Assembly: GCA_937127245.1 (NCBI GenBank)
Contig: CAKZLU010000017.1
Location: forward strand, 3,452-67,451
Source of the DNA: an uncultured Actinomycetes bacterium
GTDB taxonomy: Bacteria > Actinomycetota > Geothermincolia > Fen-727 > JACVIW01
Length of the DNA stretch: 64,000 nucleotides
Direction: 5' to 3'
Positions within the stretch are counted from its first letter, which is position 1. Each line of letters begins with the position of its first letter. Below, one piece after another: positions 13,836 through 22,190 of the stretch. Under the pieces are notes generated by a model, which was not told the origin of the DNA, did no database searches, and saw nothing but the letters and a program-made list of their open reading frames with translations. Both the position numbers and the translations under genes were made by a program.

Positions 13836-14600
13836 TCACTTCTTGCGCTTCTTGAGGGATTCGAGGAGGGACTCAATGCGGGCTTTGTTGTCATCAGAGC
13901 CGATGTAGGACCTGAACAGCCACTCTTGAGTCCTCATCGCTGTATCAAGGTCCATCCCGAGCACGCTAAAGCCGAGCCGCTTTATCTCCGCGAGGCACTC
14001 TCGGTCGCAGGAAGCCATCTGGCGTGCTATTTCATCAACGGACTCCACAACCTTCCCCTCGGGGAATACCTTGCTTACATAACCAATGCGATAAGCTTCC
14101 TGAGCGTCTATTATCCTGCCGGTGAGCGCAAGTTCTTTAGCCGGTCCCATTCCAACTATCCTCCAGAGCGGGTCGAGCAGGGGAGTAAGCGAGAGAATGA
14201 CTTCCCTCTGCCCGAATCTCGCCCTCTCGGATGCGTAGCGGATGTCGCACATCAAGGTGAGATCGAAACCTCCCGCGATGGCGGGTCCACCAACCGCCGC
14301 TATGACCGGTTGGCCGCAGAAGAGTATGGAACGGTATGCCCTGTGGAAAAGCGCCGTAAATTCCTCATTCGATTCCTTTTTTATGGTCTTGATGTAGTCG
14401 AGGTCAAAACCTGCGGAAAACATCTTCTCCCCGCCCGTGAGCACAATGACGTTAACATCCCTGTTCTGGTCGAGTTCGGTGAAGACATCCTCGATCTCTG
14501 AGAGCACCTCCGGGGACAGAGAATTGCCCTTCTCGGGTCTGTTTATTGTCACAGTCGCGAATTTGTAAGAAATCGAAACAAATAAGTATTTCTCGCCCAT
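13836..14600 (-). CDS. enoyl-CoA hydratase/isomerase (crotonase family)
   Basis: Crotonase-fold motifs (TINRPEKGNSLS, VIVLTGGEKMFSAGFDL, VIAAVGGPAIAGG). Confidence 0.85.
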   Translation of the reverse strand: MGEKYLFVSISYKFATVTINRPEKGNSLSPEVLSEIEDVFTELDQNRDVNVIVLTGGEKMFSAGFDLDYIKTIKKESNEEFTALFHRAYRSILFCGQPVIAAVGGPAIAGGFDLTLMCDIRYASERARFGQREVILSLTPLLDPLWRIVGMGPAKELALTGRIIDAQEAYRIGYVSKVFPEGKVVESVDEIARQMASCDRECLAEIKRLGFSVLGMDLDTAMRTQEWLFRSYIGSDDNKARIESLLESLKKRKK

Positions 14601-14755
14601 GATTAACCTCCTAATCTACACCAAAGTGCCCAATGGTTTGACTAAGCATCGCCATCACCCAGCATCAAGCCTTTTGGCACTGCTATCTTATCAAGAAGCA
14701 TCGCTTTTTAAGACCGCCCCGCCGTGCCGTATCCAAGCACTTTGAAACCACGCTC

Positions 14756-14905
14756 GCCGAGTATATGGCGCTCTTGTGTGTGGCGCACTTGTATATGACG
14801 CTCTTGTATGCGGTGCTCTTGTGCGCGGCGTTATTGTTTGCGGCGCCAATCATTACGCCCTTTATACCGTAATTGGTCAATTGCGCGGTACTCTCGTGTG
14901 CGGCG
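14756..14905. repeat. tandem array of ~10 degenerate 15-bp repeats (consensus GGCGCTCTTGTGTGC)
   Basis: Consecutive 15-mers ggcgctcttgtgtgt / ggcgcacttgtatat / gacgctcttgtatgc / ggtgctcttgtgcgc / ggcgttattgtttgc / ... The array lies 150-300 bp upstream of the crotonase start in a ~1 kb ORF-poor region. Confidence 0.6.
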
Positions 14906-15569
14906 CTCCTTATCTTGACCGCATCGTAAAAGCTGCGCTTGAGAGAACTGGCGAGATTTTTTGATAAAGGGGAGCTTCTGCGGTTTCACGTGTATTAAGG
15001 CAGTGGATGCGTGTTTATGCGCTTGAAAGGGCGTATTCGTGTTTATCCGTATCAAGAAATAAGCGCCGCATGGCGGTCCGATAACAGAGACCCGCCTTTC
15101 ACGCGACAGAATACGATGCGCAGGTAATGAGTGTCCTCCTGTTTGAAAAAAGATTCTCGTTCGGTGGTAATACCGTCATAAGCGTTCTTCCAGTCATTCC
15201 ATCCGATGTAGTGTGTTGGGAAACACAAACCGGTCCTGACAAAAGCCTGAAGCCGCGTATTCAAGGTGCTTACACTCCACTCAGACCATGATTTGTCCGC
15301 GCTTAACGCGCGCTGGACTTTTAAGACTTAATGCCGCCGACTATACCGTCTATACCTATACCCCGATCGCTTCCCTGTTTTCGCTTCCCGTCTTTTAGTA
15401 TCAATGGCTATCGGACTTAACCCAGACCCTAATCAGCGCGAAATAGCCTATCAAAACGCTAATTTTTAGAAAGCAGGCCAAAGGGCTTTGTTGAACGTGC
15501 CACAGCCGCAATTAAGGGTAATTTCCTCAATCTCCTTCCCTAAGGTTAATCTGATTATCTCCAATTGCA

Positions 15570-16139
15570 TTATTCTTGCCGCAATTTGCGTTTGCGCGCT
15601 TCGACCTCTTCGGCTATCACCTCGCGGGGGGAACCCAAATCGCAGAGCGCTTTGAAGTCCGAAATTAAGATGTATAATTCTCGGTCATTGCCTCTCTCGT
15701 CATTGTACTTTATGACAAGGTAGTGTGTTGTGGGGCTGTCCGGAGTATGTTCCTTGACGGTTGTCACATTGTTTATTTTTTCAAGCGGGATAACCGTGAG
15801 CTCATCTCCAAATCGGTATATGAACTCAGAGTCTTTGATCTCTAAATAACATTTATCCGGATGTCTTCTGTGCTCGAAAAATTTTTTGAAAAGACTGGCG
15901 AACACGGCTGCAAATCCTCCCGCGAAAATGCAACCAATGAGCAGGAAAAGAACCATCTTCATGTTCCTGTCGTAGAAATAGACGTTTGCCGCGCCTATAA
16001 GCAAAGCTATTGCGCACAGTGTGGCTGCCGATGTGGCAAAGCCCATGAAAACAACTGATATTATCCCAGGCTTACCTGCAACCACACGGAAAACCTCATC
16101 ATTTGTCTCACCAGATTTTTGCATCTTTTCCATTTCCAA
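15570..16139 (-). CDS. two-TM membrane protein with a C-terminal soluble (bacterial PH-like?) domain, paralog A
   Basis: 189 aa with two N-terminal hydrophobic helices. The C-terminal domain is paralogous to 16721-17278 (shared Y-x-I-x-S-x-F-x-YR ... IPLxKI..VTT ... LVIKY.DE ... S.FK.L...GSP.EVI). Confidence 0.6.
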   Translation of the reverse strand: MEMEKMQKSGETNDEVFRVVAGKPGIISVVFMGFATSAATLCAIALLIGAANVYFYDRNMKMVLFLLIGCIFAGGFAAVFASLFKKFFEHRRHPDKCYLEIKDSEFIYRFGDELTVIPLEKINNVTTVKEHTPDSPTTHYLVIKYNDERGNDRELYILISDFKALCDLGSPREVIAEEVEARKRKLRQE

Positions 16140-16265
16140 AAGGAAAAACGCATTAAGGGTTGCAGATTTTGTATAGATTCTAACACGCGCCAGATCGTCA
16201 ACAAACGCGCAAATGCTCCACGGGAAACTCCTCGAAAGACCGTTAGCATTTCCAGTTTCACCGCA

Positions 16266-16317
16266 GGATTTTTGGGTAACCCCATAGTTCCAAAAAGTGT
16301 TCCAACAATGGAGAGGG
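16266..16317 (-). promoter_or_regulatory. conserved upstream element of paralog A (GGATTTTTGGGTAACCCCATAGTTCCAAAAAGTGTTCCAA...)
   Basis: ~50-nt sequence 127-178 nt upstream of the paralog A start. About 75% identical to the element upstream of paralog B (17374-17425). Confidence 0.35.
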
Positions 16318-16720
16318 AAAAGAGGGAGGAGGTCTGTGGAGCAAAAAGAAGCAACGCATCAGCCCAAAGGAGATAAGCCCACCGCACGCGGCACGCGAGA
16401 TTTCCTTCCGCCCGAAGGGTATTTGAGCAGTCGCCGTAAAACAAAGTTGGTCTTTGTGATGGTAAGAAAACTGCTCATGTAGTTGCTATTAAAAAGATGG
16501 AATTGGGTGTCTTAAAGCCATCGCGCAGGAGGGACAAGGTAGTTTTCGGCATGGAGGGTGTGCCAAAGTAAAGGGATTGCGGCTATGTCTAACTTGCACC
16601 TACCTTTCCAACCCCTTGGTGAACCGCCGGAACTTGGTAATTCCTTTTCGCCCGCGGCTTCGCGGCATTCCCGTGTAACATGAGGCTTCCCTCACGGGGC
16701 TTCCAAAGCGTTCACAACCA

Positions 16721-17278
16721 TCAAGGACGGTGCTCAACTCTACGTTTCTTTATCTCCCGGGTGATCACTTCATCAGGCGAGCCGTACTCGGAAAGGGGTT
16801 TGAAAGACGATAAGGGTATTACAAGTTCTTTCTTTAAATCCTCTTCATCAAAGTACTTGATTACAAGGTCATATGATACCGGGTAGAGTAGATGCGCTCT
16901 TGTTTCTGTAGTAACCTCAGTGATTTTCGCAAGCGGGATAGATGTACAGTTTCTTCTATTTCTGTATGAGAATTTGGAACCGCTAATATCGATGTAATAA
17001 TTTTCCGGGTTTCTCCACTGGTCGAATAAGCTTACGAACACACGAGTGAAACGGTATGCAAGCCCAGAGGCGATGAGGAAAAAGGGAAAGAGCATACCGG
17101 TAATCATAAAGTCCTTCTCGTATATTAAGAGATCCAGAGTGCCGACAAACAAAGCAATCGCACAGATTAAAGGCGTGACCGCCGCGATTGCCCAAGAGGC
17201 AAGTGTTATTGCAACCGCTTTATCGGCAAGCATGTGAAAGGATTCAAGTTCAGGCGAACTTTGATCAGGCATCCGCAT
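16721..17278 (-). CDS. two-TM membrane protein with a C-terminal soluble (bacterial PH-like?) domain, paralog B
   Basis: 185 aa with the same architecture and conserved C-terminal motifs as 15570-16139. Confidence 0.6.
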   Translation of the reverse strand: MRMPDQSSPELESFHMLADKAVAITLASWAIAAVTPLICAIALFVGTLDLLIYEKDFMITGMLFPFFLIASGLAYRFTRVFVSLFDQWRNPENYYIDISGSKFSYRNRRNCTSIPLAKITEVTTETRAHLLYPVSYDLVIKYFDEEDLKKELVIPLSSFKPLSEYGSPDEVITREIKKRRVEHRP

Positions 17279-17373
17279 CCAATCAGATTGCGGTGCCGAT
17301 AGCGCGACAAGGAAACAAGAAGGATTGTATCAAATGAGGAAAATGATTTAGCACCCCAACTTTTTTCAAACAT

Positions 17374-17425
17374 GGATTTGGTCTAAACCCCATAGGACCA
17401 AAAAGTCTTCCAATTGCAGAGAGAC
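17374..17425 (-). promoter_or_regulatory. conserved upstream element of paralog B (GGATTTGGTCTAAACCCCATAGGACCAAAAAGTCTTCCAA...)
   Basis: Matches the element at 16266-16317 and sits 96-147 nt upstream of the paralog B start. Confidence 0.35.
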
Positions 17426-17446
17426 AAGCGGAAAGTGTTCCGCTTC

Positions 17447-17501
17447 ATAAAAAATGAGACACCTCCAAGTTGGATGATATCATCCATAACACTGGGAGGT
17501 G
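17447..17501 (-). terminator. intrinsic terminator candidate downstream of the EVE-fusion gene
   Basis: Stem CACCTCC/GGAGGTG enclosing the perfect palindrome TGGATGATATCATCCA. On the minus strand it is followed by TCTCATTTTTTAT. Confidence 0.4.
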
Positions 17502-17554
17502 GAACACGGAAAAGAAGAGGAAGCGGAACAGTTTAACAGCAGCCAACGAATTCT

Positions 17555-18649
17555 TTACTCCACTTCGAAACAAGGCTCGGCTATTTCATCAATGAACTCG
17601 GGTTTCAAAACATGGAGTAAATCTTTCGCCTGTTCAATTTTTTCTTTCAGTGCCGAGTACGAAATGTATTGACAGCATTCCGACAGCGGCGGTTTTAATC
17701 TCGCAAACGTTGGCCTCATTATTTCTTTAATAACCTTTTCACGCCTCTCCTCTGGCGCAACTATGTACAGTTTTATCTTTATATTCGGTTGCATTGAGAT
17801 AAGATCTGACATTCTAAGAATTCCGCTGTATACCGAACTCGTGTGTTCCACTTCAAACGCCGCAAAGATTGATTTACCATCAAGCCAAACAACATCTATA
17901 TTCTTAATCGTACTATTTGTTGCCTCGTCAAAGTGGAGGGGGATTTCGTCCACGCAGTAATCAGCAAATTTCATTCCTTTGTACTCTTTGTTTTTATCAT
18001 TCCGAGCAACACTTACGTCAAAGCTAAGATTTCTGCCAAGATCAATCAGCAACCACTGGATTTCTTCATGGCTAACTTTAGTCGGCAAACTTTCGATTTC
18101 TGATTCATCCTCCTCGGGAACAGTAACAATGCCCCCTTCGGTTGGATAAGTCGGAAATACTTTGGGAACCCTCCTGTATTTTTTCTCATCATAAGGAAAG
18201 GGCCTTGGATTCTTCTGTGCATTTTCCATCGCTTCTATAACCACACGTGCGTCTTCGGGTTTCATCTTCGCCGGCGATCCCCGAAAATATCCGGTCCATG
18301 CATGGGGGCTTTTCATATCTTGAAAGTACGAAAGCTTATCTTTGAGGTTAAGTATAGGGACTGCATTTTCCGGCTTGAGAAGAATCAATGGCTTGACAGG
18401 GAATCTACACGGAAAAATCTCCTGAGACCATATTGTTTTCTCAGTGTCGTAATAGGTAGGACCAGTCACCTCCAGCAAGCCGATCCACCGTGAAATGCCA
18501 GTACAGTAGCAAAGTAGGTAATCACCGGGCTTTACCTGCTTACAGACCTTTTCTCTTGTTTCCCTGAACCCTGATACGTTGGCCCCTGCCCCGAGAAACT
18601 CATCCCATGTTGTCCCAGTGAACAAGTCAAGCCAGTAACTTCGACCCAT
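17555..18649 (-). CDS. EVE (PUA-like) domain fusion protein; candidate modification-dependent restriction endonuclease
   Basis: The N-terminus (YWLDLFTGTTWDEF...VKPGDYLLCYCTGISRWIGLLEVTG) fits the EVE/PUA-like fold. The C-terminal ~150 aa carry a conserved acidic block (DVVWLDGKSIFAAFEVEHTSSVYSGILRMSDL ... LYIVAPEERREKV) compatible with a nuclease-type domain. The gene is visibly lower in GC than its flanks and has its own terminator. Confidence 0.65.
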   Translation of the reverse strand: MGRSYWLDLFTGTTWDEFLGAGANVSGFRETREKVCKQVKPGDYLLCYCTGISRWIGLLEVTGPTYYDTEKTIWSQEIFPCRFPVKPLILLKPENAVPILNLKDKLSYFQDMKSPHAWTGYFRGSPAKMKPEDARVVIEAMENAQKNPRPFPYDEKKYRRVPKVFPTYPTEGGIVTVPEEDESEIESLPTKVSHEEIQWLLIDLGRNLSFDVSVARNDKNKEYKGMKFADYCVDEIPLHFDEATNSTIKNIDVVWLDGKSIFAAFEVEHTSSVYSGILRMSDLISMQPNIKIKLYIVAPEERREKVIKEIMRPTFARLKPPLSECCQYISYSALKEKIEQAKDLLHVLKPEFIDEIAEPCFEVE

Positions 18650-18937
18650 CCTTAACCCCCATTTCAGCGCGTCTTATTGGGATAATTTAGATATCCCTGG
18701 TGAATTTTACCACATAAGAGGGTTTGGTTTGCTTGGAATAGTCTTCGACTTAGAGCGCTCGGGGGTGGAATTGTTTCGCCCCTTTTATGCGTCTCTCTCC
18801 AAAAAATTATGTGTGTTTAGAGTTTTTAGGCCACCCTGGTCAATTCATTCTCTACTCACAGACGGATACTACCTCTTGTAGTTAAACACACAAAAGCGCC
18901 AACTGCACAACATGGTTAATCCCTGTGCAGGGGAACC

Positions 18938-21610
18938 TCATAACCCGTATCCAAACGAGATGTGCCCCCCTGTGATTCCCTTGTTGTAATTGAAATACAT
19001 CGGCCTTTCGACCACGATGGGCAGATCGGAGTTTACGACCACTCCGGCGTCCATGTTCTCCCCCAGAATGCGGTTGACCGAGAAAGTGCCGCGGGAGAAA
19101 GCCTCAACGCTGGCACTGGCGATTGTCCTGACACCATCGCTTCTTATGAAAGTTATCTCCAACCTCACCCTTTTGCCATTCGGGTTGAACACGCTTAGCC
19201 ACTCCTCGAAACCACCCTTACCCCAGCTCCTTGTTGAGCCTTCAGCGAAGTACGTCCTGCATCCGGCGCAAGGCAAGCCGAGGACCGCGTGACCTCCTGT
19301 CAATCCGTTGCGGTAATTGAAATATACGACCCGCTCCCCGACTATTGGTTCGCCGCTTGAAACCTTGATGGAAACATCGCGGTCGAATCCGATTTCTGCT
19401 GGAACGTGCACTGTCACGCGCCTCATCATGGGCACTATCACGTTTTTCCGAACAAGCTGACCTCCCTGAGAGTAGAAGGAGACGGTCGCGTGGGCATCCC
19501 TTTCGCCGGGATTCTGCAGGCACAGCCACTCATCAGCCCACCTGTAAGTGCATCCCTCCGCGAAGTAGAGTTCGTTTGAAGGATTCCTCGCCCCGAGCGC
19601 GCAACTTCCCCCATCCCAGTCCCTACCGTATTTGAAATAGACGGAGCGTTCGGCGACAACAGGAACGGTGCTTGCAATGCGTATACCGAAATCCTTCTGT
19701 GCCCCGAGAACCTGGTTCAAGTTCATCGTATTCCTCGAGAGCGGGGGTACGGTCAGCCTCTTTCCAACCGGGGCTCCGCTCGCCATCAATAACTCCACTT
19801 TCACTTGAGCGCTTTTCTCGGTGGGGTTCAGAACGCAAAGCCTGGTCTCGAAAGCGGTTCCGTCTCCTGTATGCCTGGTCGTCCCTTCAGCGAAATACCA
19901 CTTGGAGGAAGGTTCAGGCGCGCCAACAACAGCGTGTCCTCCGGTCCATTTGTTGCGATAGTTGAAGTACATGACCCTTTCTGCAACCACGGGCTTGTTA
20001 GCTTCAACAATCGCGGATACATCTTTCTGAAGACCTATGTCGCTTGCCACATCTATCGTGAGCCTCGTGTTTCCCCACATCCTGTACAACTTGCGCATCG
20101 GACTCGAACCCCCGGACACAAGGTAGGTCACTGATAGACTCACGTTCTCCTTGTTCGGATTCAATACTGAAATCCACTCGTAGAATTTCCCGTCGGTTTT
20201 ATTCCTCCGGGTGGTCCCTTCAGCGAAATAGTAAGTTCGGGAAAGACCCGGCATGAAATGGACTTTGTTTGAGCTCCCATAAGAAGTGACAACATACACC
20301 TCTCCCTTGCGGGCGCCTTCCGGGACGCTCAAGACAATCTCTGAAGATGACCAGGTAATAGTATCACCACGCCTTACTCTTATTCCGCAGAACGAGACGT
20401 ACGATTCCGCGCCAGAACCCGCAAGCGCGCTCTCCGTCGGGAAGGAGCCGAGGATTCTTACCCTCGCGCCGATATGGGCGCTTGCAGGCTCTATCCCGTC
20501 GATCCAGGGACCAACCGGGTGTTTCCAAACTTGAAACCCGTAAGGGTTGCCCGTCCCAACAATGTAGTTATTTTTGAAAAGATAGGGTATGAGTATTATG
20601 TTGTTCGGATCGCCAAGACCAGCCTTGCCCCACTGCACGAAACCACCCTGAGCAGATGGTTTGTATAGGACGCCCGTCCCAGATGGACCATTTTTACCAA
20701 AGCCCAGCACTGAAAAGTAAGGCTTATTATTCATAACCACAGGAAGAATAACTGAACTCTCCTTAATGTTAACCCCCGTTTTCACCTTGACCCATGTCCT
20801 TCCGTCATACCTCCACAGCTGAGCACCTGCTGGATTGGCGGTCCCCGCGTATAGGAAATCCTTTGAAGCAGACATGAGAAAACAATCCACGTTTTGTTGC
20901 TCACCGAAGCCAGGCTGAGCGGTCTGTTTCCAAACTCCACTCCCCTCATAGCACAGTGGGATCATCATGCCCGCACCCTCTAATCTTGCGACGAGATGTA
21001 TTTTCCCCTTGTACATAGCGGGGATACAAATCCCGGTGGCGCCCACGCCAAATCCGTCTTCGTTAACTCTCGCAAACTTACTGCCATCGAACGACCACAC
21101 CTTCGCACCGTATTCCCAGTCGCCAACACCGATCAGGAGCCTGTCATTCTGAACCCCGAGCGGATAACATTCACCCCTTGCCGTATCGATTATTCCCTTG
21201 CCTATGTTTTCCCAATTCTTCCCATCCTTTGTGCGCCACAATTGAGCTCCACTGTACCTCGTGGTCGTTCCGCAGTAGAAGTAGCCCTTGTAAACAGGTC
21301 CGGGGAAAAACGCGATGTTGTTCTTGTCCCCGAAGCCATCGGTCGCCGCTTTTTTGAAGCTTATCCCATCGTATTTCCAGATAGGCACCGTTTTGGCGCT
21401 TTCGTCTTCTGAGCCGGGCACCATAAAATAAAGACCGCCATTGAACTCGGTAATCGGGAACATCATGGGGATTTCAGGGTTATCTATACCCTTATCCGCG
21501 ATCTTCTTCCACGGCTCGCTCGCTGGTGCTTCAGCCAGGAATACGCAAGAAAAAGACAGGCTTGAAGCGAGAAAGATAGCATAGAAAATCCAGAAATTTG
21601 ACCGCTTCAT
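18938..21610 (-). CDS. large secreted protein: signal peptide, beta-propeller-like repeats, IPT/TIG domain and 4 C-terminal YFAEGTT...NPN repeats
   Basis: Likely start MKRSNFWIFYAIFLASSLSFS (signal peptide) at 21610. Repeated W..DG.....GFG blocks are followed by a TIG-like segment (VRILGSFPT...VSFCGIRV), then four ~110-aa repeats each beginning (Y/W)YFAEG(T/S)T and containing L.VLNPN. Confidence 0.7.
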   Translation of the reverse strand: MKRSNFWIFYAIFLASSLSFSCVFLAEAPASEPWKKIADKGIDNPEIPMMFPITEFNGGLYFMVPGSEDESAKTVPIWKYDGISFKKAATDGFGDKNNIAFFPGPVYKGYFYCGTTTRYSGAQLWRTKDGKNWENIGKGIIDTARGECYPLGVQNDRLLIGVGDWEYGAKVWSFDGSKFARVNEDGFGVGATGICIPAMYKGKIHLVARLEGAGMMIPLCYEGSGVWKQTAQPGFGEQQNVDCFLMSASKDFLYAGTANPAGAQLWRYDGRTWVKVKTGVNIKESSVILPVVMNNKPYFSVLGFGKNGPSGTGVLYKPSAQGGFVQWGKAGLGDPNNIILIPYLFKNNYIVGTGNPYGFQVWKHPVGPWIDGIEPASAHIGARVRILGSFPTESALAGSGAESYVSFCGIRVRRGDTITWSSSEIVLSVPEGARKGEVYVVTSYGSSNKVHFMPGLSRTYYFAEGTTRRNKTDGKFYEWISVLNPNKENVSLSVTYLVSGGSSPMRKLYRMWGNTRLTIDVASDIGLQKDVSAIVEANKPVVAERVMYFNYRNKWTGGHAVVGAPEPSSKWYFAEGTTRHTGDGTAFETRLCVLNPTEKSAQVKVELLMASGAPVGKRLTVPPLSRNTMNLNQVLGAQKDFGIRIASTVPVVAERSVYFKYGRDWDGGSCALGARNPSNELYFAEGCTYRWADEWLCLQNPGERDAHATVSFYSQGGQLVRKNVIVPMMRRVTVHVPAEIGFDRDVSIKVSSGEPIVGERVVYFNYRNGLTGGHAVLGLPCAGCRTYFAEGSTRSWGKGGFEEWLSVFNPNGKRVRLEITFIRSDGVRTIASASVEAFSRGTFSVNRILGENMDAGVVVNSDLPIVVERPMYFNYNKGITGGHISFGYGL

Positions 21611-22190
21611 ATGACCACTCCGATCTCGCCTCTGAACTTCTGTCTTGCGGCGACACACCTCTGCTTCAAAGCATTTTTGCTCACATAAGATAATTCGGCA
21701 TTTAGACTTCATTTCTTTTCCCGTTAGCGCTATTTACCGATAATCACTTTAAGGCTCCCCTACACGTCTTCCCGTAAGAGAGGTATTCGCGCGTGGAGGT
21801 GAAAACGAATCAGCGGGTGATAATAGGAATCATCCTTTTTCCTTCAAAAGACGAAGACATTTCCCCAATTCTGCCTGTTAATTCATCTATTGGAAATAGT
21901 AAACATTCTTCTTCCTTAAAAAGACGGGGCTCAAAGCATGTGAAGGTGAAGAGATATATCCACCACGCTCACGACGGTCTGGTACGAGGCACTAGGCATG
22001 TTAGGGTGAATATGAATGGGTTCACGGTTATGCCCGTTTTGGACACAAGAAACCGAGTAGGACCTCACAAAACCGCATCAACCTGTTAAATATAAATACT
22101 TACCTTAGTTTCCCCGCCAAAAGAGCGAGTATGACGAAGAAAATCCGCGCCCTGAGCTTCGCGTCATTCCCTAAGCGAAAAACTTCTTAC

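Follow-up and report, generated by a model that had tools for sequence, protein, structure and literature searches.

A 64-kb stretch of contig CAKZLU010000017.1 from an uncultured Actinomycetes bacterium (hereafter the window, meaning the whole 64-kb stretch) carries on its minus strand a gene for a 364-residue protein in which an N-terminal EVE/YTH-fold sensor domain is fused, through an acidic linker, to a C-terminal nuclease domain of the NmeDI_C family. The product of the gene is probably a Type IV restriction endonuclease: a single polypeptide that combines the two modules, depends on modification of its target, and requires no nucleoside triphosphate (NTP-independent). A preliminary description of the same DNA, made from the sequence alone, had proposed a modification-dependent restriction enzyme, and that proposal is supported in silico by what follows. 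The present analysis establishes the identity of both domains, the conservation of putative catalytic and pocket residues, the lack of a conserved partner gene, and a distribution that is patchy, crosses the boundary between archaea and bacteria, and is biased toward AT-rich sequence.

The open reading frame (ORF) is real—both peptides quoted in the preliminary description are present in its translation—and its start codon is sound, the 33 homologs in the alignment sharing one start, three to four residues ahead of the motif YWLDLF. An identical protein exists in public collections (P0001). Invariance within the family refers throughout to an alignment of 34 sequences, comprising these 33 homologs and the window protein; the same alignment underlies a whole-protein AlphaFold2 (AF2) model with a mean predicted local distance difference test score (pLDDT) of 86.7. 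Coordinates of all features are collected in Table 1.

The C-terminal half, which the preliminary description could not place in any named family, is placeable as NmeDI_C: a precomputed match to PF27126 (NmeDI_C) is recorded for P0001, and the PADLOC model PDLC03534 (REase_II; 351 positions, the length of NmeDI) matches residues 183–338 with an E value of 3e-18. This alignment spans model positions 168–324 only, and the first 167 model positions are without any alignment; the recognition domains of the two proteins are therefore unrelated. A separate AF2 model of residues 190–364 (pLDDT 88.1; predicted template modeling score 0.86) contains the alpha-beta-beta-beta-alpha-beta core of restriction endonucleases and displays the defining elements of a PD-(D/E)xK enzyme, namely the fold, an acidic side chain where beta2 begins, and a motif of the (D/E)xK type on beta3. 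The endonuclease-like core that the preliminary description had proposed to look for in an AlphaFold model is thus present, with D252...E266-x-E268 as its predicted acidic cluster. Residues D252, W255, E266, E268, G276, and R279 do not vary in the family, nor in 52 NmeDI_C proteins whose N-termini are unrelated. A non-nuclease C-terminal module lacking an acidic cluster, which the preliminary description had named as speaking against its proposal, did not materialize; the family assignment, the PADLOC match, the modeled fold, and the invariant acidic residues point to a nuclease module with conserved putative catalytic residues.

A structure search had been suggested alongside the AlphaFold model. 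Foldseek found no match for the C-terminal domain in the PDB at E <= 1e-3; the best structural neighbors of the domain are all DNA endonucleases (scores as tabulated: Hna nuclease domain, 9.3; N.BspD6I, 9.2; R.BspD6I small subunit, 9.0; FokI, 7.8; NgoMIV, 7.6; SdaI, 7.4; AF1548, 7.4), with NucS and Vsr among the distant ones. A profile of the domain retrieved nothing meaningful from PDB sequences, and hhalign of that profile against a hand-entered sequence of the FokI cleavage domain returned a probability of 1.9% and no relationship; the likeness to FokI and BspD6I is therefore one of fold only. To our knowledge, no NmeDI_C domain has a solved structure.

The N-terminal domain is an EVE/YTH-fold domain of the archaeal UPF0310 clade. 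The preliminary description had read an EVE/PUA-like fold here, which proves weak by Pfam but strong by structure and by profile. The Pfam EVE model PF01878 falls short of its gathering threshold of 23 bits (score 19.1, E 1.4e-3), and precomputed PF01878 matches are present in many homologs at 55%–58% identity. The AF2 model, with pLDDT mostly above 90 across residues 1–165, and the Foldseek matches both show the PUA-like pseudo-barrel. In Foldseek the domain matches PH1033 (E 1.5e-9; TM-target 0.80) and MJECL36 (4.8e-9), the UPF0310 relatives with PDB entries 1wmm and 2p5d, respectively, and more weakly YTHDF2 (about 4e-6), VcaM4I (6yex; 2e-4), and the further EVE structures 2gbs, 1zce, and 2ar1. 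A profile of the family's N-terminal domain, searched against the PDB, likewise recovers MJECL36 (4.9e-10) and PH1033 (3.6e-8), with YTHDF proteins far behind. The NCBIfam model PRK00809, which describes the UPF0310 (PH1033) family, aligns end to end (model positions 2–144 of 146; E 6.7e-10) and misses its curated cutoff (38.8 bits against 139); judged by this alignment, the window protein belongs to a related clade and is not an equivalog.

This fold holds the putative base-binding pocket. In MJECL36, W25, F79, and F90 form an aromatic cage that superimposes on the cage with which YTHDC1 binds N6-methyladenosine (m6A) (PMC6112328). HMMER alignments map F79 of MJECL36 to W74 of the window protein, F90 to F79, and W25 to S26, such that two of the three cage aromatics are kept and the third position is a serine; W74, F79, and S26 are each invariant in the family. 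The W74/F79 pair also aligns in sequence with a cage pair of YTHDF1, which we take to be W465 and W470. In this family, then, the putative pocket appears to be kept but remodeled.

Between the two domains lies a segment whose residues 172–189 are disordered in the model (pLDDT below 50). The family motif VT[VI]P[ED]E, in which V175 and P178 are invariant, directly precedes this disordered acidic linker and might serve for docking, as a strand, or for autoinhibition.

The nuclease module is also found in other proteins. A HMMER scan of 1.84 billion representative sequences with the C-domain profile (E <= 1e-3) recovered an NmeDI_C superfamily of 2,235 clusters at 50% identity, and the module is C-terminal in every match inspected. 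An EVE head is present on 43 of the best 150 matches; 52 others have an N-terminal region longer than 100 residues, including Mrr_N (11), TPR arrays (5), HARE-HTH (2), and a different EVE domain (2). The library matches P0122–P0271 thus show interchangeable heads (EVE, Mrr_N, TPR arrays, HARE-HTH, and other PUA-like domains), of which Mrr_N and HARE-HTH are typical of DNA binding by restriction enzymes. NmeDI_C behaves as a portable effector nuclease on interchangeable DNA-reading heads, as expected of a cleavage domain without sequence specificity. Three plasmid proteins of the superfamily, labeled 'type II restriction endonuclease' by PGAP (L093–L095), have no adjacent methyltransferase. As a separate observation, the N-terminus of P0265 reads like a candidate TIR domain.

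Homologs of the complete protein are numerous and widely scattered. A word-indexed search with clustering at 90% identity gave at least 3,516 clusters, almost all of them with this architecture and a length of 360–375 residues, and relatives occur in at least 588 of 185,579 species-representative genomes, all of them 45%–60% identical to the query. Bacterial carriers include Acidobacteriota, Chloroflexota, Planctomycetota, Actinomycetota, Bacteroidota, Desulfobacterota, and Chlamydiota; archaeal carriers include Methanothrix, Methanobacterium, Methanophagales, Methanolinea, and Aenigmatarchaeota. The carriers do not follow taxonomy, and horizontal spread is therefore indicated. Of 70 loci compared, 62 also have a gene richer in AT than the surrounding DNA; the mean difference is -4.6 GC points (Wilcoxon p = 4e-9).

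The neighborhoods of these genes hold no conserved partner: across 78 homolog loci, each family of neighboring genes appears in six at most, and the commonest Pfam family among 150 immediate neighbors, N6_N4_Mtase, accounts for four, the remainder being a mixture of housekeeping and mobile genes. No cognate protective methyltransferase is thus apparent across these loci, and both a conserved operon and a cognate methyltransferase were rejected on these counts. Nor are the homologs consistently embedded in housekeeping contexts, a pattern that the preliminary description had named as one that would speak against its proposal. Defense or mobile genes adjoin five of the six homologs looked up on metagenome or genome contigs. 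P0004 (L097, GCA_014360655.1) adjoins a type III-B Cmr CRISPR operon and a transposase fragment, and P0006 (L098) adjoins PycTM and an MmeI-like Type IIG enzyme; P0003 (L096) is preceded by SNF2 helicase, AAA, and S8 protease genes, P0008 (L002/L003) lies near Fic genes and a Dcm/HATPase_c_3/Type ISP cluster, and P0110 sits between an integrase, an Mrr_cat-helicase, and a resolvase. The context of P0066 is mostly uninformative.

Modification dependence is suggested by this domain architecture and by analogy with characterized enzymes. The EVE-HNH enzyme VcaM4I flips 5-methylcytosine (5mC) or 5-hydroxymethylcytosine (5hmC) into an equivalent hydrophobic pocket and restricts T4gt (PMC7897488); EVE-PD(D/E)XK fusions have been listed as predicted Type IV restriction endonucleases (PMC7641849); and ORFs for PUA-nuclease fusions are typically not found beside methyltransferases (PMC6765204). 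For the nuclease module, the precedent is R.NmeDI, a 351-residue endonuclease that cuts double-stranded DNA 12/7 nucleotides away on both sides of RCCGGY (PMC2095814) and is classed as a symmetric Type IIS enzyme, with a recognition domain and a non-specific C-terminal cleavage domain (Pingoud et al., PMC4081073). On these analogies, we infer a DNA substrate, cutting at a distance, dimerization, and a role in defense. The EVE domain would scan DNA and flip a modified base out of the duplex into the W74/F79 pocket, and the flexible acidic linker, of about 20 residues, would tether the domains and position the nuclease. Like other two-domain modification-dependent restriction endonucleases (MDREs) (PMC7897488), the protein probably acts through dimerization of its nuclease, here the NmeDI_C domain; by analogy with NmeDI this domain would have no sequence specificity of its own and would cut both strands at a more or less constant distance from the modified base. 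Host DNA lacking the target mark would be spared, and no methyltransferase would therefore be needed; phage or plasmid DNA carrying the mark would be cut. As to the mark itself, we consider it possible, if rather unlikely, that the sensor reads a widespread modified base other than 5mC, 5hmC, or N6-methyladenine (6mA), perhaps a bulky hypermodified pyrimidine or a 7-deazapurine; such a specificity would be consistent with the invariant Trp-to-Ser replacement in the cage, with the lack of m6A binding in MJECL36, and with the unusual conservation across archaea and bacteria.

Several observations weigh against a modification-dependent restriction enzyme. The third residue of the catalytic motif is Glu (E-x-E) instead of the canonical Lys; D...ExE is a functional variant in BamHI. 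The serine in place of one cage aromatic suggests that the ligand need not be a methylated base, and m6A binding was not detected for MJECL36 (PMC6112328), the nearest relative of the sensor with a solved structure. Mean column identity in the family alignment is 63%, unusually high for a defense gene; EVE domains in defense contexts are described as fast-evolving (Bell et al., PMC7641849). The nuclease genes of the window and of many homolog loci are bordered by ordinary metabolic genes and not by a recognizable defense island. In PLSDB, 106 plasmid records hold the C-terminal module alone and none the full architecture; cultured phage genomes gave no match, and IMG/VR gave six distant matches only (30%–44% identity). 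Literature searches for PF27126, NmeDI, PH1033, UPF0310, and MJECL36 found no characterization of the EVE-NmeDI_C architecture. Separately, PHROGs returned no match for the nuclease protein, and a phage-borne gene was rejected on this result together with those from cultured phages and IMG/VR.

Other readings of the same two domains have to be weighed with these points in mind. The nuclease module is homologous to that of a true Type II enzyme, and the window protein might itself be a modification-blocked Type II/IIS enzyme like NmeDI, whose EVE fold reads an unmodified sequence and whose protective methyltransferase lies elsewhere in the genome. The PGAP label on the plasmid-borne NmeDI_C proteins and the rank of methyltransferases as the most frequent single neighbor family (4/150) are consistent with such an enzyme. 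However, about 95% of loci have no linked methyltransferase, whereas the NmeDI gene overlaps its own; the match to the NmeDI model stops short of the recognition domain, as described above; and the N-terminal domain appears to retain a cage of the EVE/YTH type, which in characterized nuclease fusions reads modified bases. Horizontal transfer of a lethal endonuclease unlinked from its protecting methyltransferase would, moreover, be difficult, in contrast to the clear mobility of the family, and we regard this explanation as improbable. The sensor fold raises a different question, that of RNA: PUA, YTH, and EVE relatives are often RNA-binding, eukaryotic YTH domains read m6A in RNA, homologs carry the JGI label 'predicted RNA-binding protein', and RNA targeting has been predicted for some Type IV-related systems (PMC11090510). 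The protein might accordingly be an RNA-directed nuclease that reads modified tRNA, rRNA, or phage transcripts and acts as an abortive-infection toxin. The sole characterized sequence homolog of the nuclease domain, NmeDI, nevertheless cuts double-stranded DNA, and the best structural neighbors of this domain are DNA endonucleases without exception; prokaryotic YTH-McrB and EVE-HNH fusions bind modified DNA, and MJECL36 did not bind m6A in an assay that we read as RNA-based. An RNA target thus seems improbable to us.

A housekeeping role, as a DNA-repair or DNA-processing nuclease acting on damaged or aberrant host bases in the manner of NucS/EndoMS or Vsr and with no part in defense, would accommodate the high sequence conservation between archaea and bacteria, the core genes (CTP synthase, tRNA synthetase, gyrase B) that border many loci, and the presence of NucS and Vsr among the distant structural neighbors. 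It fits poorly with a gene that is present so patchily among species genomes (at least 588 of 185,579), that has no synteny among homolog loci and lies systematically below its flanks in GC, and whose closest relatives adjoin CRISPR, restriction–modification, Pycsar, and mobile genes; sensor-plus-nuclease is, besides, the architecture of restriction enzymes. We consider such a role very improbable. A protein with a nuclease-like fold that is catalytically inactive, or purely DNA-binding or regulatory, is hardly credible: the missing Lys of (D/E)xK could be read in its favor, as could the little or no in vitro nuclease activity of several DUF3427-PD-(D/E)XK fusions (PMC6765204), but more than 50 divergent superfamily members keep the acidic triad and R279 without exception, as expected of an active site and not of a degenerate one. 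NmeDI, moreover, is active with the same module, as is BamHI with its D...ExE motif. A modification-dependent enzyme of Type IV therefore remains the reading that we prefer.

Among known systems, the VcaM4I/TspA15I group of EVE-HNH enzymes resembles the window protein in being two-domain, with an N-terminal EVE sensor, a linker, and a C-terminal nuclease; in being NTP-independent, as predicted for the window protein; in having no cognate methyltransferase; and in a pocket placed like the putative one of the window protein. VcaM4I differs in its nuclease, which is HNH where the window protein has PD-(D/E)xK (NmeDI_C), and in its linker, which is helical where that of the window protein is acidic and disordered; the window EVE domain belongs to the UPF0310 (MJECL36/PH1033) clade and is closer to YTH. 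R.NmeDI of Neisseria meningitidis (12/7 RCCGGY 7/12) shares a homologous C-terminal cleavage domain, a similar length (351 against 364 residues), and the layout of N-terminal recognition and C-terminal cleavage. Its N-terminal domain is unrelated, however, and reads unmodified RCCGGY, and its gene overlaps that of its C5-methyltransferase in an operon; the window protein has neither a linked methyltransferase nor an N-terminal recognition domain homologous to that of NmeDI, as a restriction–modification system of the NmeDI type would require. MJECL36 and PH1033, the nearest solved relatives of the window sensor both by profile and by structure, share with it two of the three putative cage positions but are stand-alone proteins of about 145 residues without a nuclease, and W25 of MJECL36 corresponds to S26.

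YenY4I (EVE-DUF3427-DUF3883 PD-(D/E)XK) and the SRA fusions of the MspJI/AbaSI type also join a sensor of the PUA superfamily to a nuclease of the PD-(D/E)xK type. For MspJI and AbaSI, the distance between the modified base and the cut is known to be fixed. The window protein would function like the MDREs of the VcaM4I or MspJI type, with a cutter from the NmeDI lineage. These enzymes differ from the window protein in belonging to other sensor clades (SRA or TspA15I-type EVE) and other nuclease families, and YenY4I, of about 600 residues, has an additional DUF3427 domain; YenY4I and the SRA-nuclease fusions of the MspJI/AbaSI type act on modified DNA only, and YenY4I is the single PUA-PD-(D/E)XK example found by Lutz et al. 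Closest in core architecture and predicted role is the EVE-PD(D/E)XK class of Bell, Wolf & Koonin (2020, BMC Biol 18:159, PMC7641849); their census makes no mention of NmeDI and includes no experimental test, and it describes EVE domains in defense contexts as fast-evolving, whereas the window family is strongly conserved.

Table 1. Features of the nuclease gene and its surroundings, in window coordinates
Feature	Position	Strand	Basis or measure
Complete ORF, EVE(UPF0310)-linker-NmeDI_C fusion, 364 aa	17555..18649	minus	ORF listing and homologs
N-terminal EVE/YTH-fold sensor domain, residues 1–165, UPF0310 clade	18155..18649	minus	AF2, Foldseek, profile searches
WSQEIF, holding W74 and F79, retained aromatic-cage residues of the putative base-binding pocket	18413..18430	minus	translation and alignment
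Interdomain segment, residues 166–189: conserved VTVPEE motif, then acidic linker of variable length	18083..18154	minus	translation, alignment
C-terminal NmeDI_C PD-(D/E)xK nuclease domain, residues 190–364	17558..18082	minus	
Predicted catalytic core DVVWLDGKSIFAAFEVE: D252 at beta2 start, E266-x-E268 at beta3 end	17846..17896	minus	translation and model
Terminator-like 40-nt hairpin (17461–17500), then U-tract (17449–17454)	17449..17500	minus	sequence, RNA fold
Low-GC island: nuclease gene and two paralogous two-transmembrane protein genes	15200..18950		GC 0.452 against 0.499 for the window
Two-transmembrane paralogs, 185 aa and 189 aa	16721–17278 and 15570–16139	minus	
924-aa protein, N-terminal hydrophobic segment, repeated modules	18938–21712	minus	DUF5719 and ASRT matches

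Locally, the nuclease gene shares a low-GC island with two genes for paralogous membrane proteins. The preliminary description had called the gene markedly AT-richer than flanks of about 58% GC; the AT-richness stands, but the contrast was overstated, the flanks lying at about 0.50–0.57 and not at a uniform 58%. The ORF has a GC content of 0.437 and a GC content at third codon positions (GC3) of 0.452, and falls at the 2.3rd GC percentile of equal-sized windows within the 64 kb. GC3 is 0.45–0.51 in the three island genes against 0.52–0.70 in the other ORFs measured, and the GC minimum of the 64 kb lies at 16.8–17.4 kb, directly downstream of the nuclease gene. An ORF-poor stretch at the edge of the island (14600–15570) holds a 15-nt tandem array at 14761–14846, with about 5.3 copies of the consensus GGCGCTCTTGTATGC and 73% matches. 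Rfam found nothing over 14.4–19.1 kb, with just a sub-threshold match to sbrA (14862–14913; E 0.9) near the array.

The stem-loop and T-tract terminator proposed for the gene was borne out in part. About 55 nt past the stop codon is a hairpin, followed by UCUCAUUUUUU, with a folding energy of -21.8 kcal/mol (z -3.1; 1 of 200 shuffles equally stable); it was not flagged by a scan with the consensus terminator model, and the U-run begins 6 nt past the stem, so that we describe it as terminator-like and not as canonical. A 15-nt inverted repeat (17432–17446 and 17520–17534; 93% complementary, 73 nt apart) brackets the hairpin, and the two together form a compound structure of about 100 nt that separates the nuclease gene from the nearer of the membrane-protein genes and could be a terminator, a 5' untranslated region element, or a small repeat element.

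The neighboring duplicated membrane-protein module, also described earlier, was recovered: the paralogs share 34% identity (E 9e-34), both combine two hydrophobic segments with a C-terminal half that is soluble, and upstream of either gene is a copy of a common 28-nt element (16278–16305 and 17386–17413; 89% identical between copies). They match nothing in Pfam, PADLOC, or PHROGs and were found in none of about 90 other homolog loci fetched; the gene of about 183 codons downstream of P0008 is not homologous to them. On these grounds they were rejected as functional partners of the nuclease and are regarded as cargo that happens to be co-located. Directly upstream of the nuclease gene, on the same strand, is a gene for a 924-residue protein whose repeated modules match DUF5719 and the Anabaena sensory rhodopsin transducer (ASRT) fold; its GC content is normal (0.52), and it therefore lies outside the island. 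The other flanking genes within the window are metabolic (enoyl-CoA hydratase, SDR, acyl-CoA dehydrogenase) and have no PADLOC matches. The window holds no tRNA, no integration-site signature was found, and a crude motif scan of its ORFs of at least 150 residues found no methyltransferase motif.

The finding is incremental, in that the class to which the window protein belongs was already predicted bioinformatically in 2020 and both of its domains have database models. In the literature found, no biochemically characterized enzyme is a direct fusion of an EVE sensor with a cleavage module of the Type IIS kind, and a Type IV enzyme of this design would extend the PUA-nuclease repertoire of MDREs from HNH to PD-(D/E)xK nucleases of the NmeDI type. 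It would also give a likely role to the UPF0310 clade of EVE domains, that of MJECL36 and PH1033, and might provide a fixed-distance, modification-dependent cutter for epigenomic mapping; were the sensor to read an unusual mark, the specificity would be new among MDREs and could yield a mapping enzyme in the style of MspJI and AbaSI. For the family itself, the same reading would mean an abundant and phylogenetically very broad one-protein Type IV system, represented by at least 3,500 clusters across archaea and many bacterial phyla.

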